Notes under the pieces: model-generated
Databases searched by the model: none
Told to the model about the DNA's origin: nothing
What the model saw: only the letters and a program-made list of their open reading frames with translations
NCBI GenBank assembly: GCA_030622115.1
Contig: JAUXGN010000003.1
Span: 35,465 to 99,464, forward strand
Length of the DNA: 64,000 bases
Direction of reading: 5' to 3'
Origin: Candidatus Eiseniibacteriota bacterium
GTDB taxonomy: Bacteria; Joyebacterota; Joyebacteria; Joyebacterales; Joyebacteraceae
Translations under genes and position numbers: made by a program
Shown: in pieces, positions 19,471-32,147 of the stretch
How positions within the stretch are numbered: position 1 is the first letter of the stretch
How the letters are laid out: each line of letters starts with the position of its first letter

Positions 19471-22400
19471 CTACTTCAGCAAAACGACCTTCTTCGTCAG
19501 CTTCGTGGCATCGGAAGTGAGTCTCACGAAGTAGACTCCGGATGATGCACGTTCGCCGTGGTCGTCAAGCCCGTTCCATACTACCGTCTTCCGCCCGGCA
19601 GACATCTCCTCTGCGAGAAGCGTCCGCACATGCTCACCGGCGACGTTGAAGACGCCGAGTTCAACCGCAGCGCCCCCATCAGGCACGAGGAAAGCGATGG
19701 TAGTGGTCGGATTGAACGGGTTCGGGAAGTTCTGTTCCAGGACCATTCGGCCGTGCGTCGTAACCCCACCCTCGTGCACACCAACCGGCTCCTCATATCC
19801 GAAGAATCCATTCCGGAGGAAGTTGTGCCGGAACGTCGCCCACTGGACACCGCTGCCGTCGTCGTAGTCACCCTCGACGTCCCAGACATACACGTTGGCG
19901 TCCATACCCGAGACGATGACCTCTACGTCACCATCATCATCGAAGTCGACGAGGGTCGGCGTGCAATAGATCTCGGCATCAGTCTGGATCGGCCATCCGG
20001 CCAGGATGCTGCCGTCGTCATCGAAGGCGTAGACCTTGCCGCTGTTGCATCCGATGACGATTTCCCAGTCGCTGTCGCCATCTATGTCGCCGACGGCAGG
20101 ACTCGAGTGGGTTCCCTCATCCATCATCTGAGGCCACCCCGGCAGACTGGAGCCGTACCAGGTCCATATATAGATACTGCCATCGACTCCTGCCTGGATA
20201 ATCTCGAGTTGACCGTTGCCGGTGATGTCGGCGACGGTGGGAGAGGGAGGAAAGTCCCCGCCCATGTCGACGTTCTTCGGCCAGCCGGGAAGCACCATAC
20301 CTTCGTGGTCGAACACCCATAGCGAGTCGTCATCCGCCGCAGCCAATACCTCAAGATCTCCATCGCCGTCCAGATCTGCGACGCAGGGGGATCCGATCGA
20401 TTTCTCCGATATGCGAACGGGCCAGCCCGGGACCCGCGTCCCGTCGGGGTTGAAGCAGTAGATGCTCTCTGAGCGTGATGGAACCAGAATCTCCAGCTCG
20501 TGATCTCCATCCAGATCGACGATAACGGCCGATCCGTATGCCCACGAAGCCATCAGATCGGCGAAGACGCCGTCCGTCGCCGCGTTGTTGTCTCCATCGA
20601 TCAGCTCAGAGCCGTTCGCGCTCCAGGCGTAAACGAAGCCGTCCGCACAGGGGATCACGACATCGTCGAGTCCGTCATGATCGAGGTCACCGAGAGCGGG
20701 CGTCGCCCAGCAGAACTTGGTCGTTGTCTTCGGCCACCCGTCAAGCACGGTGGCGTCCTCTGCGTTCCAGGCGAAGATCTCGTATTCCGGCTGGGGATCG
20801 CCCACATTGGCCCACGCGGCGCAGACGATTTCCGGATAGGGGTCGCCGTCCATCTCACCCACGGCTATTGAGGACCTGTAGCCGCCCTGTCCGTCAACCT
20901 CATAGACGCCTTCGGTCCTCGGGTCGCCGTCCCCGTCCCGGTACTCGACGCCGTTGTGATGCCAGCAGTAGATGTGGCCTGCGCCCACGAGGAGTTCGAG
21001 GTCACCGTCGAGATCGATGTCAACAAGGGCAGGCGTCCCGTATATGGACTCGCCGCCTGGGAGTGGCCAGCCCGGCTGACTCGGGGGGTTCGTGCTTATT
21101 TCGATGATATCCGAGTGATCGCCCTCGTTGCCGGAGGAGTCGATCGCCGCGACCTCGTAGTAGTAGCGAGTATTCTCATCCAGGCCGGCATCTTCGAAGT
21201 AGGAGATGAGTTCAACTGTGCCGTTGTTGGCCTGTGAGTATGGTCCCGCGAGGTGTTCGGCGCGATAGATGTTGTATCCCCAGAGATCGACGTCGTCCGT
21301 GGGATCCCACGTGAGATAGATGGTCGTCGATTTGACGCGTCCGGCGAGATTGAGCGGTTCTGCTGGAGGCGTAAGGTCGAAGAGCAACGTCCAGATTTTG
21401 CCATCCTCGTCGGAGAGTTCGAGTTCAAACGGCTGTGTCACGGCTGACACGATGTCGAACTCAAAGCTGCCCGCGCTCGCCACCTCTTGTCCTGCTGCGA
21501 TGTCACCCCAGCTGTCGGTACTGTCGGTGATAGTAACCTCAGCGCCGGGGTAGCGGAGGGTCCCTGTGACCAGGTCGGCGTCGCCGTCACCCTCATTGAG
21601 GATATCGATCGTCAGAGTGAGGTGCTCACCGATGTCGGGGATGCCGTCGCCGTTTCCGTCATCGCTCGCGTGGTTCCTGAGCTGGACCGGGATCGGACGG
21701 AACACGCGGAGCGTGTACTCGCTTATCCATGAGAGACGAGTTCCCTCAGAGAACTCGACCTCAAGAACAGTCTCATACTCATTGGGGCACGTATCGGCAA
21801 TCGTGATGGCGAAAGGAGCCGAGAGCGGCATCTCACTCGTCGCAGCGATGTCGCCGATGTACTCCGTTCCGTCGATGATTGCGATCGCCGGGTCGGTGCT
21901 CGTGAGCGTAGCGGTTACGGCAGTCGCCTGAGTCTGCCCGGCATTTCCGATGAGCATGCTGATCTCGATGCTCTCACCGGCTTCGGGCAGACCGTTGGCG
22001 TTCCCGTCACTCGGTGCGACCGCGTCGTCGTCGAGTGTGACCGATCTCACGGTGACGTATGCCCCGGCCGATGAGGTGACGACGATCGTGTCCTCATACG
22101 GCAGCTGGTTGGCGGCCGTGACAGTGATCGTCATCGAGCCGGTTGTCAGAGGAGCAAAGGACAGGAGCGCCTGGCCGGACGCGTTCGTTAACCCCGTGGC
22201 ATAGACTTCGCCGTCCTTGACGACGCACACGAGCGCACTGTCGACCGCCGCAGGGTTCGAAACCGAAACCGCCAGAGCGACCTGGCCGAGTGGCACGGTG
22301 TTGTTGTGCACGACCGTCATGCCGGCCGGTCTCGCAGTCCAGAGCCGAGCTTCAGGGTCTCCGAGCAGGACGAAGCTCATCTGGGTCCAGCGGTCCGTGT

Positions 22401-24189
22401 TGTCATAGGCTGACTCGGCGACATACGGAACCTTGCACATCGCGCTGACCACCCCGGCGCGAGTTGTGTCGAACGCGTGGAGATACTCGAACCAGGAGTA
22501 GTAGTAGTCCTTTGCCGTGGTCGGGAAACAGAATCTCGTCGGGCCGTAGACAAACGCTGTACCCCCGCCAGGGTTGTTGAGCACGTGCTCCGCAATGCAG
22601 TCGTACTCGATGGCGGTCGAGGTGCAGTTGAGCATCCAGATGAGACCCGACTTGCTGATTCCGTTCGTGAGAGCGTCGACATCCTGTATCGTGACGTAGT
22701 TCTCGAATCCCGCCCGCATGATGTCCTTGTTCCCGTGGCCTACGTGCGAGATGATGTTGTAGCCGCGTTCGAGCGAATCAATCATCGATACCCTGTTCAG
22801 AGGGAAGGAACTCGGGAAAGGTGAGTAGTTCTGGTAGACGAGCGAGGTGTGAATGGCCGGCGGGATGAGATGCAGCATTGGCTCCACGACATGCTCGGCG
22901 CCGTCGGTGCTCACGTAGTCGCCCGGTTGCCAGTCGTATGGGAACAGGACCTCGGCGAGAAAGAGATCCCTCTCAGTGAAGAGGGGATCAGGCGTCGCGA
23001 CGTAGGAGATGGTCTTGTCCACGAACGTTTCGGCTTCGATGATATTCGTGACAGTGGCCCTTCCTACGAACACATCGGGGTAGAGATCCAGACTGTCACC
23101 CGGGGATGATACGCCTCCGTACCCTTCGCCGAAGTAGTTGTCACCGTCACCATTCCAGTTTCCATCGAGGTCGCTGTAATACAGGTCTGTTGAGATGTCC
23201 CATCCACCATAGTATGAAGAGCGAATGAAGCGAATGGGTACTATGTTCGTATCCCCGCCCAGAAGCACATATGTGGTTCCCCAGGAGGCGAAGGCATCCT
23301 GAATGAACAACCGAATCCGTTCCGCCGTGTCGCTGCCACCTGTGTAGTTGGCGTTGATCCACGAGACGGTCTTGACAACGGCCGGCACACCCTTCTTCGT
23401 CTTCCAGTCGGCGATATCCTGGAAGCAGGGCGCCAGGTTCTCATCGGTGATGATGACGTACTCGACAAGGCTCCCCTCGAGAGAAGGGCCGTACCGAGGG
23501 GCGAACGCGCCGGCGCCCGTTCCATCCACCACCTCAACCGACTGTTTCGCGAACGCGGCTACATCCTCGGGATTCTCGACGAGCCCACGGACGATGCTGC
23601 GATAGCGCTCGTCCGAGCTTGCCGTTATCCGGTGGCGAGGCGCCGACCGATCGACACTCGCCACGAGCTTGATCTGTGCGGAGAGGTCGGTTGTGAGAAC
23701 CAGTCTGCCCGACAGTGGGTGGTACCTGAGAGGGGAGAGGGCTATGCTGGCGATATGGTAGCCTCCGAGATATCCGTCACCCAGAAAGACCGCACGGTCC
23801 GAAGGGTAGATGGCGTCGCTCTCGTAGATCGAGGCGTCCGGATCGGCCCGGGGTGGCGTCTCGCCGATGGGAACCTCGGGCTGAACGGGACGAACCCTGT
23901 GGACGCCCGGCAGTTCCTCCTCGGCTGTGAACGAGATGATGATGTCTTCCACCGCCATGTCCGCCGGGATCACGAAGTGGATGACTCTTGCAGGGATAGC
24001 GGGCGCGCCGACCTCGGCGAGCGAGCGATGTCCCTCGAGAGCAAGCTTCGAGAAACCGTCTTCCTGCAGGATCTCAATCTGTGACACATCAACAGGGAGA
24101 TCCACAGATGGACCTGTTGCCGCTGCTGAGAGGGCGACCAACGCGATCAGACAGAGAGCCAAGGTGAGAGCTGCCAATCTGGGGGTCAT
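19471..24189 (-). CDS. giant secreted C25 (gingipain-like) cysteine peptidase with FN3 domain, FG-GAP/'GWP' beta-propeller repeats and a T9SS C-terminal sorting domain
   Basis: Start at 'MTPRLAALTLALCLIALVALSAAATG' with an AAGGAGG SD 5 nt upstream. The six-frame ORF extends to 24288. Catalytic His in 'SHVGHGN' and Cys in 'WMLNCTSTAIEYDCIAEH'. Repeated 'LDGDGDLE…PGWP' units. C-terminus 'FPNPFNPTTTIAF…GVYFVRL…KKVVLLK'. Confidence 0.75.
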   Translation of the reverse strand: MTPRLAALTLALCLIALVALSAAATGPSVDLPVDVSQIEILQEDGFSKLALEGHRSLAEVGAPAIPARVIHFVIPADMAVEDIIISFTAEEELPGVHRVRPVQPEVPIGETPPRADPDASIYESDAIYPSDRAVFLGDGYLGGYHIASIALSPLRYHPLSGRLVLTTDLSAQIKLVASVDRSAPRHRITASSDERYRSIVRGLVENPEDVAAFAKQSVEVVDGTGAGAFAPRYGPSLEGSLVEYVIITDENLAPCFQDIADWKTKKGVPAVVKTVSWINANYTGGSDTAERIRLFIQDAFASWGTTYVLLGGDTNIVPIRFIRSSYYGGWDISTDLYYSDLDGNWNGDGDNYFGEGYGGVSSPGDSLDLYPDVFVGRATVTNIIEAETFVDKTISYVATPDPLFTERDLFLAEVLFPYDWQPGDYVSTDGAEHVVEPMLHLIPPAIHTSLVYQNYSPFPSSFPLNRVSMIDSLERGYNIISHVGHGNKDIMRAGFENYVTIQDVDALTNGISKSGLIWMLNCTSTAIEYDCIAEHVLNNPGGGTAFVYGPTRFCFPTTAKDYYYSWFEYLHAFDTTRAGVVSAMCKVPYVAESAYDNTDRWTQMSFVLLGDPEARLWTARPAGMTVVHNNTVPLGQVALAVSVSNPAAVDSALVCVVKDGEVYATGLTNASGQALLSFAPLTTGSMTITVTAANQLPYEDTIVVTSSAGAYVTVRSVTLDDDAVAPSDGNANGLPEAGESIEISMLIGNAGQTQATAVTATLTSTDPAIAIIDGTEYIGDIAATSEMPLSAPFAITIADTCPNEYETVLEVEFSEGTRLSWISEYTLRVFRPIPVQLRNHASDDGNGDGIPDIGEHLTLTIDILNEGDGDADLVTGTLRYPGAEVTITDSTDSWGDIAAGQEVASAGSFEFDIVSAVTQPFELELSDEDGKIWTLLFDLTPPAEPLNLAGRVKSTTIYLTWDPTDDVDLWGYNIYRAEHLAGPYSQANNGTVELISYFEDAGLDENTRYYYEVAAIDSSGNEGDHSDIIEISTNPPSQPGWPLPGGESIYGTPALVDIDLDGDLELLVGAGHIYCWHHNGVEYRDGDGDPRTEGVYEVDGQGGYRSSIAVGEMDGDPYPEIVCAAWANVGDPQPEYEIFAWNAEDATVLDGWPKTTTKFCWATPALGDLDHDGLDDVVIPCADGFVYAWSANGSELIDGDNNAATDGVFADLMASWAYGSAVIVDLDGDHELEILVPSRSESIYCFNPDGTRVPGWPVRISEKSIGSPCVADLDGDGDLEVLAAADDDSLWVFDHEGMVLPGWPKNVDMGGDFPPSPTVADITGNGQLEIIQAGVDGSIYIWTWYGSSLPGWPQMMDEGTHSSPAVGDIDGDSDWEIVIGCNSGKVYAFDDDGSILAGWPIQTDAEIYCTPTLVDFDDDGDVEVIVSGMDANVYVWDVEGDYDDGSGVQWATFRHNFLRNGFFGYEEPVGVHEGGVTTHGRMVLEQNFPNPFNPTTTIAFLVPDGGAAVELGVFNVAGEHVRTLLAEEMSAGRKTVVWNGLDDHGERASSGVYFVRLTSDATKLTKKVVLLK

Positions 24190-24464
24190 CACTTCCTCCT
24201 TCACCGCTTGTGTTTTCGGTTCGAGCGCCTCAGGGACAAGAACGGGATCGAAGCGCATTGTCGTACGCCCGATCCCGGTGCAAGTCACGCGGATACAAAC
24301 AGAGAAACATTACCGCGCTCAGAGCTACCGTTGGGCATCGCTTTCACGATGCGTCAGATCATCAATGTCGGCTCTTTCAGGACGGTAGCAGTGTGGTGAG
24401 CGGTGTTTCTCCCCTGATGCAGCTGCCGGATGCGAATGCCAGCTTGATTGTTTCTATTGAAGAT

Positions 24465-24674: not shown

Positions 24675-27600
24675 CTACTTCAGGAGTACCATCTTGCGCG
24701 AGTCTTCCCAATCGCCGATGGCGGCACGGACGAAGTAGACTCCGGATGAGACCTGCCTGCCACGCGAGTCCTTCCCGTTCCAGACGACCAAGTGGTTCCC
24801 CGCGGTAGCTGGTCCATCAACCAGGACTGAGACAAGCCTGCCGGCGACATCGTAGACGGCGAGGCGTGCGTGCGCGCCCTCGAGACCTACCGCGTAGCTG
24901 ATCGTCGTGGTGGGGTTGAACGGGTTTGGTGCATTCTGGTGGAGCCGGTTCGGGAGCGCTGCAGAAGCGTCAGCCACTCCCGTGTTACCGATGAGATTGA
25001 GATCCGTGAGGATCCTGGTCACGTATTCGAGATGCGTCGATGGATATCCCGATCCCGTCATGCCGCCGAGGATCACCGGTATCATGTAGCGGTGTGATCC
25101 GGTTGCAGGATCGACATAGTGCGTTCCCCTGCACTCGAGACTCTGGTCGCTCCAGAGCAGAGCACTGCCGGGCTCGCCGTCGGGGCCGACCTTGCTGATG
25201 AACTGATCCGGATCGGCCTGGTAGTCATACGTGAAGTAGAGTCCATCCATGACAGTTCCGGTTGCGCCATCCAGTGACTGGACGTTCCCGATGCTCTTCC
25301 CGTTCCCCATCGCGTACGTGCAATGGAAGCGCTCCCACAGATCCAGCGTCGTTTCGGTTCCGTTGACCTTGTACTGGCCACCGAAGTTCGGTTCCTCAGT
25401 GTAGAGGCTTCCGCCGTCGTCCACGAACGCGATGAGCTGAGCAGCTTCATCGTCCGACATCGGTACGTTGAAGCCGCCGAAGTTGATGACCCCGCCCAGA
25501 TAGATGATGAGGTCGAAGGGACTGAGATCTTCCGGCAGCGTCTCGGAGTAGATGTAGAACTCGCCTATCGAGTCAAGCGTCTGAAGCCACGGCACTTCCG
25601 TGCCGTCTTCCTCAGAGAAGGTATCGTTCACTCCGTCGAACGGCATGTCGCCGTCGTCGGCGTCCCACAGGAGTACCTTGGCGTTCACGCTTGCTGCTAT
25701 CGGACCGACGCAGTCAACAAGACTGTCCTCGTTGCCCCAGAGATCTCCCGCCATCACCGCGTAGTAGTATGGCTCCGCATTCGACACGGTTGTGTCGTCG
25801 AGAGTCGTGCCGTCGGGCACGAGCAGCCCGGAAGCGATGGGCGTGAGTCCGGACACGTCCGCGAATGGCGTGGACTCGCGGTAGACCTTGTAGTACGCAA
25901 AGTCGCTGGGGGCGACATAGCCCGTCCAGTCGAGTTCCACGAGGCCGCCCAGATCGAACGGATCGGCAGCTATCAGCGTGCCGATGGGGTCGGGCGCGGT
26001 CGTGTCCAACGGCTGGTCGACGATTGTGAGTGTCTCTTCGTGAGGAAGCATGTCGGGTCCCGTCACCATCATGGAGAGAGCGCCCTCGACAGTCGGATCG
26101 ATGTCCACTTCAGCGATTCCATCGGCGCCCGTTGTGAAGACCGCATCGATCTCATCGTTGTGAAGGTAGATGGACACGCCTTCAATGGCTCCATCATCAT
26201 TCTGAATCGTTACAACGAACGGCTCACCGGATAGCGGGATACTCGTGGGGCAGTTAACGGTCGCGGTTGAAGGCTCGTGAGACCATATCCTCATCTCAGG
26301 ATCACCCAACAGATTCAGCTCGTAGAGCACGTAGCGCGTGTAGCCATCGGTACGGGCTTCGCTGACGAACACATCCTTGTGAGCAGCGTGGGCCACGCCG
26401 ATGATATCGTTGCCGTGGTTGTACAGCTGGCTGAAGAACTCGCGGTCGTACCGATCGGACGTTCCGTTGCCTGGTCCACCGGGCGAGCCCCATCCATAGC
26501 GGCTGTTGCCGACAAATGCCACGCCGCCGCCGGGAGAGTTCATCCAGTGCTCGGCGATACAGTCGTAGTCGATGGCGGCCGGATAGCATCCGATCGTCAC
26601 GAAGATGCCCTGCCTGTCTCCGTTGCTCATGCCATCGAAGTCGGAGCGGTAGAGTGACGAGCTGCCGATGCAGAGGACACTGTAGTGGGCGTGGCCGTTG
26701 TGATTCGTGATGTTCTGACCGGCGTTGAGATTGCTCATGGTTCGCGATTTCGTCAGGAGTCCGTTCGTTTCATAGAGCTTCGTGATCGGATCGAACTGTC
26801 CGGGAACCGATTCATCGTCGATGTAGTTCTTGCAGATGGCATGGTCGGTCCATGGATCGGTCCACAGCACTTCCGCGAGGAAGAGCATGTTCTCCTGGTA
26901 GTCGGTAGGGAGCGTGTTCCCGGCAGGAGAACCCTCGTACGTGAGAACCTTCGTGACGAAGCGCGATGCTTCCGTCGTCGAGTTCACTGGAGCGCGGCCG
27001 ACATAGACGTCCGCATAGAGATCGATGCTGTCCTGCGTGATCTCGCCCCATGTGCTGTCGCCATCGCCGTTCCACGTGCCATCGAGGTCGCTGTAGTAGA
27101 GATCGCAGATCGGCGAATTCTCGCTTCCGCTTCCGACGTTGTATGCGTAGGCTGCACGCGCCGGCACGATATTGGTGTCGCCTCCCAGGAGAACCCACAG
27201 AGTGCCGTGGTTCTCGTAGTAGTCGATGATACAGTTTCGGACCATCTCCGCGTTGTCGACACCGTCGTAGTTCGCATAGATCCAGGAGGTCGAAACAATC
27301 TCTGTTGTGAGGCCCTTCTGTTCCTTCCAGTCGGCAAGAGGCTGGAAGAGGGACTCGTATGTTGAGCTTGTCACGATGAGATAGTCGACTTGATCATCTC
27401 TTGTCGTGAGGGTGGAAGCCGCCTCAACATCATACGGATTGACCACGAAGTCCCTGACCCTCCCGACCACAACCGCATCCGCCCGTTCAGATCGTCTCGC
27501 GGGGACCCGAGATACTCTCGTGTCCCGCTCGAGTTCGAGAGTGACAGTGATGCTCTCATTCAGCGTAAGCCTGCCGTCGAGCGGACTGTACTGGAGTGGG

Positions 27601-28079
27601 TAGACCGCAACCGTCGCAACCCGATGTCCGGACATGTTGCCCGTGTCCATGAGGCGACAGGCCATCGAAGGATACGGCGCAGGCGACTCATATACGCTCG
27701 GTTCGGGGTCGATCCACTCCGGGATCCTCGGGAGCGAGAGCGGGATCTGCGGCTGGACCGGTCGGATTCTGAATCTTTCGGGAAGCACGCTCACTCGCGC
27801 GACCGTCGCTGATGCGCTCGAGGCCGTCATCCCGTCAGGGAGAGCGAATCGTATGAATGCGACCGGGAGTTCCGGGCGACCCAGTTCGAGCGTGGATCTC
27901 AGGCCTTTCATCTCTATGACATCGTACCCGGTCACGCGTGAGGTCACGAGTTCGTGAGACGAGAACTCCATCGAATATGCAAGTGAAGGGGCCGCGAGCG
28001 CGGCCGGAGCCCAGAGACACATGATCATGACGACCACGAGGGCTGAAGACAATACGATCCGACGCTCAGACAGCCGCAT
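24675..28079 (-). CDS. second secreted C25 (gingipain-like) cysteine peptidase with T9SS C-terminal sorting domain; paralog of 19471..24189
   Basis: Start 'MRLSERRIVLSSALVVVMIMCLWAPAALA' with the AAGGAGG SD at a 6-nt spacing. The ORF's first ATG at 28085 abuts the SD. Shared 'LLGGDTNIVP', 'GHAH…' and 'IDYDCIAEH' blocks. C-terminus 'APNPFNPTTTISY…GVYFVRA…RKMVLLK'. Confidence 0.75.
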   Translation of the reverse strand: MRLSERRIVLSSALVVVMIMCLWAPAALAAPSLAYSMEFSSHELVTSRVTGYDVIEMKGLRSTLELGRPELPVAFIRFALPDGMTASSASATVARVSVLPERFRIRPVQPQIPLSLPRIPEWIDPEPSVYESPAPYPSMACRLMDTGNMSGHRVATVAVYPLQYSPLDGRLTLNESITVTLELERDTRVSRVPARRSERADAVVVGRVRDFVVNPYDVEAASTLTTRDDQVDYLIVTSSTYESLFQPLADWKEQKGLTTEIVSTSWIYANYDGVDNAEMVRNCIIDYYENHGTLWVLLGGDTNIVPARAAYAYNVGSGSENSPICDLYYSDLDGTWNGDGDSTWGEITQDSIDLYADVYVGRAPVNSTTEASRFVTKVLTYEGSPAGNTLPTDYQENMLFLAEVLWTDPWTDHAICKNYIDDESVPGQFDPITKLYETNGLLTKSRTMSNLNAGQNITNHNGHAHYSVLCIGSSSLYRSDFDGMSNGDRQGIFVTIGCYPAAIDYDCIAEHWMNSPGGGVAFVGNSRYGWGSPGGPGNGTSDRYDREFFSQLYNHGNDIIGVAHAAHKDVFVSEARTDGYTRYVLYELNLLGDPEMRIWSHEPSTATVNCPTSIPLSGEPFVVTIQNDDGAIEGVSIYLHNDEIDAVFTTGADGIAEVDIDPTVEGALSMMVTGPDMLPHEETLTIVDQPLDTTAPDPIGTLIAADPFDLGGLVELDWTGYVAPSDFAYYKVYRESTPFADVSGLTPIASGLLVPDGTTLDDTTVSNAEPYYYAVMAGDLWGNEDSLVDCVGPIAASVNAKVLLWDADDGDMPFDGVNDTFSEEDGTEVPWLQTLDSIGEFYIYSETLPEDLSPFDLIIYLGGVINFGGFNVPMSDDEAAQLIAFVDDGGSLYTEEPNFGGQYKVNGTETTLDLWERFHCTYAMGNGKSIGNVQSLDGATGTVMDGLYFTYDYQADPDQFISKVGPDGEPGSALLWSDQSLECRGTHYVDPATGSHRYMIPVILGGMTGSGYPSTHLEYVTRILTDLNLIGNTGVADASAALPNRLHQNAPNPFNPTTTISYAVGLEGAHARLAVYDVAGRLVSVLVDGPATAGNHLVVWNGKDSRGRQVSSGVYFVRAAIGDWEDSRKMVLLK

Positions 28080-28130
28080 CTGCATCCTCCTTGAGCCGAC
28101 AATAACAACCATAACTACAACTATTACCAT

Positions 28131-28159: not shown

Positions 28160-28276
28160 GGATTTATGAACCGCGCACCACATCATCGCGACTGGCCTGC
28201 GTTCCTTGATACTCTGACGCTGGCTTCATGCATACGTTGCGGCTTGTTCCGCTCCACCAGCATGGTTGCCGTGAGA

Positions 28277-28302
28277 ACGCCCCCGGCAGTCGCCGGGGGC
28301 GT
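28277..28302. terminator. GC-rich hairpin (11-bp stem ACGCCCCCGGC / GCCGGGGGCGT, loop AGTC) ~45 nt downstream of the paralog-A gene; candidate terminator or attenuator
   Basis: Inverted repeat read from the sequence; T-rich run on the plus side only. Confidence 0.35.
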
Positions 28303-28348
28303 TCTATTAGTGATCCGTACTCACGCCGTAAGCTCTCTCTATACTATG

Positions 28349-29584
28349 CTATCTATAGAAGGACTTGATCGTGCCCCAACTCGAGCGCTCGACCGGGATC
28401 TCAGTCTCCATGAGCCATGTGTCATCAAGCATGATGCCTGCGCCGCCCGCGGTCCCGGGCCCGCAGCCGTTGTCCGTGGTGTTGAAGGTCAACTTGAACT
28501 GGAAGAACGTCCCCGGCAGGAGATCCGTGATATCGATGCCGTCGAGACCGTGCGCGGACCACCCGTCACACTGCCCGAAATCGCCCCACCAGGCTCCGAC
28601 CTGGTTCCAGACTACCCCTCCGTCGACTGTCACCGACTCCGTGTAGTAGTCGTTGTCCACCTGCGGTACCTCGGCGTGGAGGGCAAAGAAGAGAGTACAG
28701 GCCGACGCGGGGGTGAGACCGGAGATATCCACCTGCGGTGAGATGAGGGAATTGGAGAGATCTGGTGGGATGAGACTGGTATCTGCGTCATCTCCACACC
28801 ACCAGCTGGTCGGGTCACTGTATGCCGGGCACGCACGTGTGATCTGGTGCCAGTAGTCGCCTGATGACGCGGGGACTGCTGGAGTGCAGAGCCCGCCCGA
28901 TTCCACGTCGTCCAGGAAGTAGACGGCGCCGCCGTAGAAATCGAAGATCGTCACGTTGTCTACCATATAGGCGCCTCCGACCGAGTCGTAGTCGCCATCC
29001 TCATCGGAATAGGCGCCGTCCGATACGAAGCGGAAGCGAGCTTCTACAGGATTGTCAGCCACATTGAGCACGAAGCCGTACGCACCTAAGTCGACCCAGG
29101 TGCCGCCGCTGATCAGGCCGCAGTACCCGGCGTTCTGCGCTGTGAAAACCCCGCCGATTTTCACATCGACATACGTGAAATCATAATCCTGCTCGCTGTC
29201 GTAGTAATGCACGAATGTGAGAATGGGATAGTAGGCGGTGCTCACATCCGTCGTCGGGATGATGAGAAGGTCGGTCCATGTGTTGCCGTAGCCGCCATTG
29301 GTGTCGTATGCGAAGTTACCACACCACCAGTGGTTCGTGTCGTAGGCCATGTACGTGTCAACATGGAAATGCGGAGTGGCGACAGCCGTCTCATCCACAG
29401 TCGTCCATCCGTTGGTTCCACTTTCCATGTCGTCGAACCAGAGCATGGCGGGCCGGGGGCCGAGGTCGGAATAGTCGGCGACCGACGCCTGCTGTCTGGC
29501 TGGGAGGATGGGGGAAAACAGTACGACTGCCGCGAGGGCTACGAGAACAGTCCTTGCAGTCATGATAGGACCTCCTTTGCGCAT
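28349..29584 (-). CDS. secreted Cys/Trp-rich protein of an unrecognised family with an internally duplicated module (paralog A)
   Basis: 411 aa; signal peptide; 'WWCG' appears twice (HWWCGNFAYD / SWWCGDDADT) with aromatic-rich beta-strand periodicity; no HEXXH; conserved C-terminus 'PVERSSWGTIKSFYR'; alternative start at 29563. Confidence 0.6.
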   Translation of the reverse strand: MRKGGPIMTARTVLVALAAVVLFSPILPARQQASVADYSDLGPRPAMLWFDDMESGTNGWTTVDETAVATPHFHVDTYMAYDTNHWWCGNFAYDTNGGYGNTWTDLLIIPTTDVSTAYYPILTFVHYYDSEQDYDFTYVDVKIGGVFTAQNAGYCGLISGGTWVDLGAYGFVLNVADNPVEARFRFVSDGAYSDEDGDYDSVGGAYMVDNVTIFDFYGGAVYFLDDVESGGLCTPAVPASSGDYWHQITRACPAYSDPTSWWCGDDADTSLIPPDLSNSLISPQVDISGLTPASACTLFFALHAEVPQVDNDYYTESVTVDGGVVWNQVGAWWGDFGQCDGWSAHGLDGIDITDLLPGTFFQFKLTFNTTDNGCGPGTAGGAGIMLDDTWLMETEIPVERSSWGTIKSFYR

Positions 29585-29692
29585 GAGATCGTCTCTCTCC
29601 GCTCGATCGGCGGCGGATAGGCCAGCTACGACTGATTCTTGGCCGCGGATCCCACATTGTCAACACAAAAAACCACATTCGCGGGTTGGGAT

Positions 29693-30952
29693 TCATCGAT
29701 ACAGCGCCTTGATCCTACCCCAGCTCTTGCGCTCAACCGGAACATCCGTTGTCTCAAGCCAGATGTCGTCGAGCGCAATCCCGGCTCCTCCCGCGACCCC
29801 CGGTCCGCATCCGTTCGATGTCGTGAAGAAGCGGATCATGAACTTGAATGATGTCCCAGGGAAGAGATGCGTAATGCCGTGTCCGGTAACGCCCGCGTTT
29901 CCCCAACCGTCGCACGACTCGAAGTCACCCCAGTACGCTCCCAACTGATACCACGATGCTCCATCATCTACCGATGCGTAGACGCTCCAGTAGTCGTTAT
30001 CCACGGTTGGCACTTCGGCGTGCAGCATGTAGCGCAGCGTGCAGGCGACCGAGCGATCGAGGCCGCTCAAGTCGACCGCCGGTGACTCCAGACGATTGTC
30101 CAGGTTGGGCGGGATGTGGCCGGTATCGGCGTCGTCTCCGCACCACCAGCTGCATGGATCGCTGTAGGCGGCGCACCGCCTGTCAGTGATGTGCCAGTAG
30201 TCTCCCACGGCCGGACGCACGCTGGGATTGCAGAGACCTCCGTTCTCGACATCGTCGAGAAAGTACGTCTCACCGCCGTAGTAGTCGAAGACCTTGATGT
30301 TATCAACGTGGTACGCGCCGCCGATCGAGTCGAAGCCACCGTCTTCATCTGAGATCGTGCCGTCCGAGAGAAAGCGGAAGCGAAGCTCCAGCGGGTGGTC
30401 GTATCCCTCGACAACGTATCCGTAGACACCGAAGTCCTGCCAGGAACCACCGGGTATCAGACCGCAGTAGCCCGGGTTCAGATCTGTGAATTCACCCCCG
30501 TCCTTCACTTGCACGTAGGTGAAATCGGAGCCCGGCTCGGAGTGGTAGTAGTGCGCGAATGTGAGTATCGGGTAGTCGGCGCCGGACACGTCGATGAGAG
30601 GTAGCTCAAGGCGATCGTCCCACTGGTCTCCGTATCCACCGTCCGAGTCGAAATCGAACGAACCGCACCACCATGAGCGTTCGCCCTCAAAGGCCATGTA
30701 GGTGTTCACATGAAAGTGCGGCGCTACGCCCCACGTGTTGTCTCGGTGATTCCAGCCGGCTTCGCCGCTCTCCATGTCGTCGTACCAGATAACGGTGCCC
30801 CGCGTCCTCGGGGATCGGAATGCGCGTGTGTCCATCTCGGGAGTTGCTCTGCCGTACGTGGGAAACACGAGAACCAGCGTGACGATCAGGAGAAGGCCGA
30901 CGAGATTTCTCATGTGAGTACGCCGCATCTGCGGGGATTTCGATCCGGACAT
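29693..30952 (-). CDS. secreted Cys/Trp-rich protein (paralog B, ~60% identical to 28349..29584)
   Basis: 419 aa; AAGGAGAG SD; same module order and Cys positions; C-terminus 'PVERKSWGRIKALYR'. Confidence 0.6.
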   Translation of the reverse strand: MSGSKSPQMRRTHMRNLVGLLLIVTLVLVFPTYGRATPEMDTRAFRSPRTRGTVIWYDDMESGEAGWNHRDNTWGVAPHFHVNTYMAFEGERSWWCGSFDFDSDGGYGDQWDDRLELPLIDVSGADYPILTFAHYYHSEPGSDFTYVQVKDGGEFTDLNPGYCGLIPGGSWQDFGVYGYVVEGYDHPLELRFRFLSDGTISDEDGGFDSIGGAYHVDNIKVFDYYGGETYFLDDVENGGLCNPSVRPAVGDYWHITDRRCAAYSDPCSWWCGDDADTGHIPPNLDNRLESPAVDLSGLDRSVACTLRYMLHAEVPTVDNDYWSVYASVDDGASWYQLGAYWGDFESCDGWGNAGVTGHGITHLFPGTSFKFMIRFFTTSNGCGPGVAGGAGIALDDIWLETTDVPVERKSWGRIKALYR

Positions 30953-31097
30953 GGTACTCTCCTTGGCGCAGATCGTAGGATCAGCGTGTCCGGTCTTGGG
31001 GAGGCTACGGGAAGTCTGGCAGCAGCTTCATTCTTCCTTCTGTGGGCAACCGTTGTCAATGAATATACTCCTCACGCATCCCGATACAAGCACAGGC

Positions 31098-31126: not shown

Positions 31127-31211
31127 TACAGCTGTGGTTGATTCAATACTCTTGCGGACTCCGGACTGCTGAAGGGTGTCGGGGGGACGTGCCAATGTGG
31201 AGGGTGTGTTG

Positions 31212-32147
31212 ATGAAGACAAGAAGAACGGCTCTGTGGACCATTCTGGTCATGTTCCTGGTGGTGGCTGCTGTCTCACCGCCCGCGGGAGCGAAGAAGGA
31301 CGAGGCGCCGGCGGGTCTCAAGAAGATGATCGCGGTCGTCGAGTTCGAGGACAAGAGCGACCGCAGCCGCTGGAACTGGACCGGTCCCAATCCTGGTCGC
31401 GGGATGTCCGACATGCTTGTGACCGCGCTTGTTCAGTCCGGCGCGTTCAGTGTGATGGAGCGTGAGCAGCTGGATCATGTCCTTGCCGAGCAGAACCTCG
31501 GACAGTCGGGGATGGTCACGGCCCAGACCGCGCCTCAGTTGGGAAAACTCCTCGGTGTTGCAGCCATCGTCTACGGCTCGGTGTCCGAGTTTGGCTACAT
31601 GGCATCCGATACCGGCGGCAGCATTCCCGGGTTGGGCGGCGGCGGATTTTCGAAGACGACGGCGCGCGTCTCCATCGACGTCCGTCTGATAGACACGACG
31701 ACGGCGGAGATCATCCTGGCCGAGACCGCATCGGACGAGAAAACGCAGATGGGACTCAAGCTCAGAACGCAGGATTTCTCCTTCGGGCACGACGGCAAAT
31801 TCGATCAGACGCTTGTGGGCAAGGCCACGCGTGAGGCGATCGAGGATCTGGTCGAGAGCATAGTTGAGGCACTCGAAGATGTCCCCTGGACCGGGCGGAT
31901 CATCAAGGCCTCCGGTGGGAAGATCTACCTCAACGCCGGACAGAGTATCGGCATCACGTCAGGGATGAGATTCAACGTCTACAGGATGGGGGAGGCTCTG
32001 ATCGATCCGGTCACAGGATTGGATCTGGGAGCTGAGGAGGAGTTGCTCGGCGTCATTGAGGCGTCCGATATCAAGGAGAAGTACTCCATCTGTTCGCTCG
32101 TCAGTGGTTCGGGACTCGATGCCGGAGACATGGTTCGCTACGAGTAG
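31212..32147 (+). CDS. CsgG-family (curli production assembly/transport component-like) secreted or lipoprotein
   Basis: ATG at 31212 (the in-frame GTG at 31176 is also possible); 'KKMIAVVEFEDKS…GRGMSDMLVTALVQSGAFSVMEREQL' matches the CsgG N-terminal core. Confidence 0.65.
   Translation: MKTRRTALWTILVMFLVVAAVSPPAGAKKDEAPAGLKKMIAVVEFEDKSDRSRWNWTGPNPGRGMSDMLVTALVQSGAFSVMEREQLDHVLAEQNLGQSGMVTAQTAPQLGKLLGVAAIVYGSVSEFGYMASDTGGSIPGLGGGGFSKTTARVSIDVRLIDTTTAEIILAETASDEKTQMGLKLRTQDFSFGHDGKFDQTLVGKATREAIEDLVESIVEALEDVPWTGRIIKASGGKIYLNAGQSIGITSGMRFNVYRMGEALIDPVTGLDLGAEEELLGVIEASDIKEKYSICSLVSGSGLDAGDMVRYE

Follow-up and report, generated by a model that had tools for sequence, protein, structure and literature searches.

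The sorting elements LPXTG, PEP-CTERM and the C-terminal domain (CTD) of type IX secretion system (T9SS) cargo each led to a dedicated envelope machine, and all three are routine in surface-proteome prediction. The T9SS type A CTD (TIGR04183/PF18962) is a folded, immunoglobulin-like element of 70–100 residues. The LPXTG, PEP-CTERM and GlyGly-CTERM signals are tripartite, with a motif, a transmembrane helix and a basic cluster, and dockerins are Ca-binding docking domains of ~70 residues. The DNA analyzed here, a window of 64,000 nucleotides from a contig of a Candidatus Eiseniibacteriota bacterium, encodes two tandem paralogous proteins, A and B, which end in a shared 15-residue tail. This tail is a widespread, uncatalogued and modular tag, and is probably a new sorting or anchoring signal, as judged from its distribution, its conservation and its exclusivity with the CTD.

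Comparison to the described systems shows both likeness and difference. Like the CTD, the tag is a modular C-terminal element carried by many unrelated exported proteins, in the same genomes, but it has no sequence similarity to the CTD and can be internal. As with LPXTG, PEP-CTERM and GlyGly-CTERM, it is a short motif at the extreme C-terminus of many signal peptide-bearing proteins of a lineage and displays 'choice-of-anchor' behavior, but it contains no hydrophobic segment. It shares with dockerins the character of a modular C-terminal element on diverse secreted binding and β-helix proteins, and one tag carrier has a cohesin domain, but the tag is much the shorter. We know of no receptor for it.

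The bodies of A and B also have described relatives. Their repeated domain is homologous to the InhA-like MAM domain (PF20773), an accessory domain of the M6 immune-inhibitor-A peptidases (B. anthracis InhA2, PDB 4yu5/4yu6), but is tandem-duplicated and standalone, without the M6 catalytic domain or HEXXH. Structurally, it resembles the 'cleaved adhesin' domains of the gingipain haemagglutinin/adhesin region (Kgp K1, PDB 4itc; PF07675), which are likewise associated with C25 peptidases. Unlike the gingipain adhesins, A and B are encoded by separate genes and not within a protease polyprotein, and their C25 association is limited to one ortholog group.

The tandem paralogs, their fold and their family

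The two genes and the parts of their products are as follows.

29693–30952, minus strand: gene of paralog B, 419 aa, with a signal peptide, two MAM-like jelly-roll domains and the 15-aa tail (open reading frame (ORF) list, family alignment, AlphaFold2 (AF2) model)
30845–30952, minus strand: Sec-type signal peptide region of B, residues 1 to ~36, no lipobox (basic n-region, hydrophobic AF2 helix 10–29)
30269–30802, minus strand: domain 1 of B, residues ~51–228, an InhA-like MAM jelly roll with WWCG and the acidic motif SDGxxSDEDG
29747–30268, minus strand: domain 2 of B, residues ~229–402, a diverged copy of domain 1 with WWCGDDADT and NGCGPG (hhalign, AF2 strands)
29696–29740, minus strand: tail tag of B, PVERKSWGRIKALYR, directly 5' of the TGA stop (logo of 64 unique tails; short helix in the model with a low predicted local distance difference test score (pLDDT))
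28349–29584, minus strand: gene of paralog A, a 411-aa ORF with probable start at Met8, giving 404 aa (ORF list, BLASTP)
28925–29455, minus strand: domain 1 of A, residues ~44–220 (alignment with B and the family; weak PF20773 match)
28403–28924, minus strand: domain 2 of A, residues ~221–394 (alignment with B and the family; hhalign)
28352–28396, minus strand: tail tag of A, PVERSSWGTIKSFYR, directly 5' of the TAG stop (sequence)

The initial annotation had described tandem paralogs of 411 and 419 aa that are about 60% identical and internally duplicated, with two WWCG modules each, conserved cysteines and no catalytic motif or T9SS CTD, and each of these features was confirmed. BLASTP aligns A and B with 61% identity over 369 aa (E 9e-168). 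The length of A is most likely 404 aa, since the ATG at 29563 (Met8) is preceded by a ribosome-binding site, AAAGGAGG, and the homologues P0004 and P0005 begin at the equivalent Met. Each paralog contains 8–9 Cys and 15–16 Trp, and WWCG is found at residues 86 and 261 of A and 94 and 269 of B. The N- and C-terminal halves of the family profile match each other over 139 columns (hhalign probability 93.7%, E 2e-7). In an alignment of 36 family members, five Cys are invariant and two are nearly so. Searches of A and B for HExxH and for the lipobox L-[AS]-[GA]-C found neither. A signal peptide, called heuristically from a basic n-region, an h-region and a small-residue site, is present in A, B and all aligned homologues. 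The N-terminal helix of the AF2 models agrees with this call, and the homologues end the region with AxA-like sites.

The AF2 model of B (pLDDT 81.7) consists of two β-sandwich domains. The individual PF20773 scores of the two proteins, 16.2 bits (E 0.0077) and 14.4 bits (E 0.027), lie below the gathering threshold of 26.9 bits, and homology to this domain was found at the family/profile level together with the same fold. Sequence searches of the PDB, with a single protein or with the profile, gave no match, and fold comparison alone succeeded. The early guess of a MAM- or jelly-roll-like fold was therefore correct. Pfam matched neither Peptidase_M6 (PF05547) nor the cleaved-adhesin domain (PF07675) in A or B, and the T9SS CTD models PF18962, PF13860 and TIGR04183 also gave no match in either, although both C25 neighbors match. 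A and B are thus exported, non-enzymatic proteins of tandem MAM/carbohydrate-binding-module-type jelly-roll domains that arose by an ancient internal duplication. The fold is ordinary, that of tandem InhA-type MAM domains, and the family itself is new. From the fold class, A and B most likely act outside the cytoplasm as adhesin- or lectin-like binding modules.

The family is large, lineage-restricted and strongly paralogous. A database search with B returned 414 relatives at E ≤ 1e-3, nearly all of 397–446 aa and none annotated by name; the named sources among them are Candidatus Eisenbacteria, and B itself has no identical entry on record. An exhaustive profile search reached 1322 representatives, with ~56 core two-domain proteins. 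Relatives are encoded at 117 loci in species-representative genomes, and the 79 loci retained all belong to metagenome-assembled genomes (MAGs) labelled Ca. Eisenbacteria, Ca. Effluviviaceae or 'bacterium', several single MAGs having at least six loci. Large T9SS cargo proteins also begin with this two-domain module. The description of Ca. Effluviviacota, which has several MAG names in common with the family sources, makes no mention of the family, and no paper in the searchable literature links Eisenbacteria with T9SS. More than 400 clusters of 'hypothetical proteins' are hereby given a fold and a likely role.

A modular tag and its alternation with the T9SS CTD

The motif PVER(S/K)SWG(T/R)IK(S/A)(F/L)YR closes both A and B, as had been noted at the outset, and a six-frame translation of the whole window contains no further copy. 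All 36 aligned family members end in PVExxSWGxIKAMYR, 3–8 residues past the last strand of domain 2. The logo of 64 unique tails gives the consensus [PA]-V-E-x-x-[ST]-W-G-x-[IVL]-K-[AS]-[LMF]-[YF]-R-stop, in which W(−9) and K(−5) are invariant and the terminal Arg is present in 62 of 64. ORFs were called in 84 genome sources (1.28 Mb), and the six-frame translation of this DNA contains the core motif 106 times, compared to 0–1 in shuffles, with 87 of the 106 copies within two residues of a stop. Synonymous codons vary freely within the tag, with all six codons used at Arg(−1) and both codon families at Ser(−10), and conservation does not extend to the DNA 3' of the tag. It is therefore the peptide that is under selection, and a DNA-level element is ruled out. 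As a separate observation, 79% of tail-bearing genes use TAG as their stop, compared to 46% of other long ORFs of the same loci (Fisher p 2e-6, on paralogous genes that are not independent).

The tag is matched by no model of Pfam or NCBIfam (June 2026), with NCBIfam searched at E up to 1 for whole proteins and up to 10 for isolated tails, and its motif strings gave no match in the searchable literature. The tail is not a sortase- or exosortase-type signal of the LPXTG, PEP-CTERM or GlyGly-CTERM kind, as it lacks a hydrophobic stretch and has no NCBIfam match. Neither is it an outer-membrane-protein β-signal, which closes a membrane β-strand of a barrel with an aromatic residue, usually Phe: the terminal residue here is Arg, and the hosts are soluble β-sandwich, β-helix or propeller proteins. 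It is a new modular tag, a single peptide that closes unrelated exported proteins far more often than chance would allow and is selected at the protein level. The suggestion that the motif might be a new sorting or anchoring signal has held up, in that numerous exported proteins of unrelated kinds carry it and no catalogued signal corresponds to it.

Proteins outside the family were found in three ways. In the genome loci, 14 non-family ORFs end in the tag, mostly with signal peptide-like N-termini; they include β-helix/PMP-repeat, FG-GAP and cohesin-domain proteins, a ~450-aa family and several proteins without a Pfam match. A search of a 5.8-billion-protein database with a 40-aa tail query yielded 37 short candidates only, which are fragment examples rather than a census and add further distinct contexts upstream of the tag. 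The third source was a metagenome scan with degenerate DNA for V-E-x-x-S/T-W-G-x-hydrophobic-K-x-hydrophobic-Y/F-R-stop, for which a rough estimate of the chance expectation is ~1 match. It yielded at least 120 stretches, and the counts from it are counts among the matches listed. These contain 129 tag-ended ORFs, eight of them from the double-MAM family, and BLAST groups the other 121 into at least 57 clusters, including 43 singletons. The contigs have a GC content of 0.46–0.79. Full-length carriers have a median length of 256 aa, and 69 of 82 begin with a signal peptide-like N-terminus, compared to 32% of background ORFs by the same crude test. Exemplars match Beta_helix, DUF11, Cleaved_Adhesin or nothing known.

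Several features of individual carriers were also observed. In 80 of the 121 listed non-family carriers, the 20 residues before the tag include a Cys, often as CxxC or CxC (for example ...ACGDCNSPVEP... and ...CPPCVTPVED...), as if a disulfide stapled the end of the preceding domain. Tag-bearing genes cluster in loci L018 and L025; L018 (13.3 kb) has one family member and three unrelated carriers, a β-helix protein, a 290-aa protein of no recognized type and an FG-GAP protein, within 12 kb. In L061, L068 and L077, tag carriers are interleaved with runs of T9SS-CTD cargo genes. Little more than a short Cys-rich segment separates signal peptide and tag in the 68-aa predicted protein P0276, which could be a natural minimal carrier.

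The tag substitutes for the T9SS CTD on homologous bodies in two families. Among 94 unique near-full-length family ORFs, 67 have a C-terminal tag, 16 an internal copy and five a CTD, and six are degenerate or truncated. The five CTD-ended ORFs are fusions of 1343–1695 aa without the tag. More broadly, the motif is found in 0 of 46 ORFs with a T9SS-CTD-like ending, defined by a regular expression on the last residues rather than a hidden Markov model. The second family is a β-helix cluster of the metagenome loci, with 16 tag-ended and seven CTD-ended members among the matches listed.

In the internal copies, which define a large subfamily, TVEExSWGxIKxLYR and the ~20 charged residues that follow it interrupt a domain 1 loop that corresponds to B residues ~121–127. 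Proteins with this loop form have no C-terminal tag and often end in another basic tail, such as ...ESPYRRF. Using one of these proteins as a database query brought up 78 new clusters, 62 of which have the loop copy and none of those 62 an additional tail copy. The AF2 model of a loop-form protein (pLDDT 79) keeps both jelly rolls, and residues 110–141 have pLDDT below 50. Within this region WGAIKALYR is modeled as a short unpacked helix, like the C-terminal tag in the model of B. The existence of loop copies and of unrelated hosts indicates that the tag does not depend on a free carboxylate or on any one host fold. Cleavage of the loop copy after Arg, which would regenerate a ...YR end, was considered and is weakened by several loop copies that have Leu in place of Arg.

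One tag per protein is the rule. The exception, P0160 (342 aa), has an internal ASWGTIKERYR and a C-terminal GSWGRVRSLYR, the latter with Arg in place of the invariant Lys. The loop-insert subfamily (L077:10037–11389, L068:8618–9943, L073:11320–12696 and P0324–P0340) has a C-terminal ending of its own, a predicted helix followed by ...[IV]PESPY[RAG][KR]F. This is a second, unexplained terminal motif that replaces the SWG tail.

Candidate roles of the tag

In the mechanism we propose, Sec would export A and B, and their two jelly-roll domains would bind outside the cytoplasm. The tag would be an exposed, autonomous peptide outside the fold that a conserved partner reads in trans, whether it lies in a surface loop or at the C-terminus. 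The partner may be a sorting machine, an anchoring scaffold or an envelope component, and would deliver the protein to the envelope or surface or hold it there. On balance, and with moderate confidence, we infer that A and B are exported tandem-MAM binding proteins whose tail is a targeting or docking tag read by such a partner. This reading follows from the modularity of the tag, its position-specific conservation, its exclusivity with the CTD, its positional flexibility and its predicted lack of packing. Only tentatively do we extend it to an unrecognized sorting or surface-anchoring pathway parallel to T9SS, with a dedicated receptor or enzyme that possibly acts on the invariant Lys and can read the loop copy, in bacteria of the Eisenbacteria/Effluviviacota type and possibly in others related to the Fibrobacteres–Chlorobi–Bacteroidetes group.

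The tag is conserved as strongly as LPXTG, PEP-CTERM and the T9SS CTD, on several dozen or more unrelated exported families of metagenome-only phyla, and its apparent function in a loop is unusual for a sorting tag. If the tag does serve in targeting or anchoring, the proteins that bear it make up the non-T9SS surface or periplasmic proteome of these organisms, and a tag profile combined with phylogenetic profiling would provide a handle for finding the machine that reads it.

Several points weigh against this docking-tag reading. Clustering of the genes that neighbor carriers, in the 84 genome sources and 120 listed metagenome loci, revealed no recurrent partner gene beyond lineage synteny, nor a dedicated enzyme gene near tag carriers. 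We know of no outer-membrane export route for proteins without a CTD, and the carriers may thus simply be periplasmic. The binding function is deduced from the fold class, the low-confidence AF2 regions are no proof that the tag is disordered, and the carrier GC range of 0.46–0.79 is no more than suggestive of the taxonomic breadth of the tag. As for the locus, a C25 gene lies within 10 kb in only 18 of 83 family sources, with most paralogs elsewhere, and A, B and the two C25 genes of the window each have their own sigma-70-like promoter match.

The tail could instead be a generic amphipathic helix that tethers exported proteins to a membrane without a specific receptor, comparable to the C-terminal helices of E. 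coli PBP5/PBP6 or MinD. In the AF2 models the WGxIKxxYR core does form a short helix, whether it is C-terminal or in the loop, with W, I, L/M and Y on one face and K/R on the other, and the hydrophobic moment of 0.36–0.54 is within the range of known membrane-targeting sequences. However, this moment is reached by 13–34% of shuffles for most forms of the tag (4% for paralog A), the helix is predicted with pLDDT below 55, and helices of this kind do not typically begin with an acidic V-E or average close to zero in hydrophobicity. The conservation of the tag on unrelated hosts, with invariant W, G and K and near-invariant V-E, S/T and R, also far exceeds what a generic helix needs. We therefore regard a membrane helix as unlikely.

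Somewhat less probable again is a covalent handle, in which the invariant Lys, or a cleavage or transpeptidation site, would be linked to peptidoglycan, lipopolysaccharide or protein by a dedicated enzyme. An L,D-transpeptidase and a PorU-like C25 'sortase' are candidates for this enzyme. The C-terminal ...YRK of Braun's lipoprotein (Lpp) is an L,D-transpeptidase substrate, and the Y-R end of the tag is reminiscent of it, but the likeness is loose, the terminal residue being Arg and not Lys. No tail or loop form departs from K(−5) and W(−9), and the tag alternates with the T9SS CTD, itself a sortase substrate. Against this, the replacement of the terminal Arg by Leu in some loop forms speaks against a fixed cleavage site after Arg, and no linked enzyme gene recurs near carriers. 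C25 genes with weak PorU similarity do adjoin the genes of the window, but the C25 link is found in one ortholog group only.

A and B might also be dedicated to the C25 peptidases next to them, as chaperones, inhibitors or propeptide-like partners, roles that the initial annotation had raised, and the tail might be specific to that system. We consider such a dedicated role quite improbable. The proximity of C25 genes in 18 of 83 sources is accompanied by unrelated contexts for the other paralogs, the tail is found on at least 57 unrelated protein clusters among the matches listed, and both C25 proteins already have their own Propeptide_C25. In the window, moreover, the promoter-like sites are separate, and A is set apart from the C25 gene by a hairpin.

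Least probable of the four is an intramolecular capping strand, autoinhibitory plug or degradation/quality-control tag with no targeting role, which would fit the constant position 3–8 residues past the last strand of the last domain, the Cys or CxxC within 20 residues upstream in 80 of 121 listed carriers and the single copy per protein as a rule, but not the unrelated hosts (β-helix, FG-GAP propeller, cohesin, DUF11 and small proteins), the lack of packing in AF2 models of both contexts or the absence of the tag exactly where the T9SS CTD is present, which is unlike a fold element.

Gene neighborhood and the C25 peptidases

In the window, A and B are co-directional with, and upstream of, two C25 genes, as had been reported. 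The remaining features of the locus are listed here.

31030–31059, minus strand: promoter-like site 5' of B, TTGACA-N18-AAGAAT (consensus match only)
29635–29663, minus strand: promoter-like site 5' of A, TTGACA-N17-AAGAAT, hexamers as for B (consensus match only)
28275–28304, minus strand: GC-rich hairpin 3' of A with a 13-bp stem and a GACT loop, terminator-like without a T-run (read from the sequence)
24675–28130, minus strand: first downstream C25 peptidase, 1151 aa, with a propeptide and a T9SS-type CTD, the conserved neighbor of the ortholog group (Pfam/NCBIfam; synteny in at least 13 other MAGs)
19471–24288, minus strand: second C25 peptidase, 1605 aa, with an FG-GAP propeller and a T9SS-type CTD (Pfam/NCBIfam; synteny)

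The gene order recurs in at least 13 other MAGs, as one or two paralogs followed by a C25 peptidase of ~1140 aa and usually a second of ~1580 aa, and the identity of the syntenic orthologs to B ranges from 84% to ~48%. This conservation suggests a functional connection for the ortholog group of the window. By analogy to the gingipains, it suggests that A and B of this group may serve as separate adhesin or substrate-binding partners of the C25 proteases. The co-occurrence with C25 peptidases that had been proposed as a check is conserved for this group but is not family-wide, and other paralogs are found in conserved, unrelated contexts of their own, for example between selA and arsB. A, B and the two C25 genes are neighbors with no evident single operon. 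A tight operon of all four was considered and is unsupported, given the separate promoter-like sites and the 13-bp GC hairpin after A.

Both C25 proteins match Peptidase_C25, Propeptide_C25 and FlgD_ig/Por_Secre_tail (Pfam/NCBIfam). They also give partial matches to the NCBIfam PorU model, at ~71–75 bits compared to a cut-off of 420, and the larger one matches the C-terminal part of the 'T9SS-dependent M6-like inactivated metalloprotease' model. GC content is ~60% throughout the window.

The hexamers TTGACA and AAGAAT are identical 5' of A and B, which suggests that the tandem duplication took in the promoter. In L005 and L006, TTGACA at the orthologous position comes after a hairpin that resembles a terminator and has a T-run. 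Upstream, B adjoins a divergent gene for a CsgG-family (curli secretion channel-like) lipoprotein (31176–32147, plus strand; PF03783, E 1e-41), which has the same position in the syntenic locus L003. In the window and L003 alike, this gene is followed by a glgC-like gene, TonB_C, Peptidase_S55 and a 690-aa propeller-like gene.

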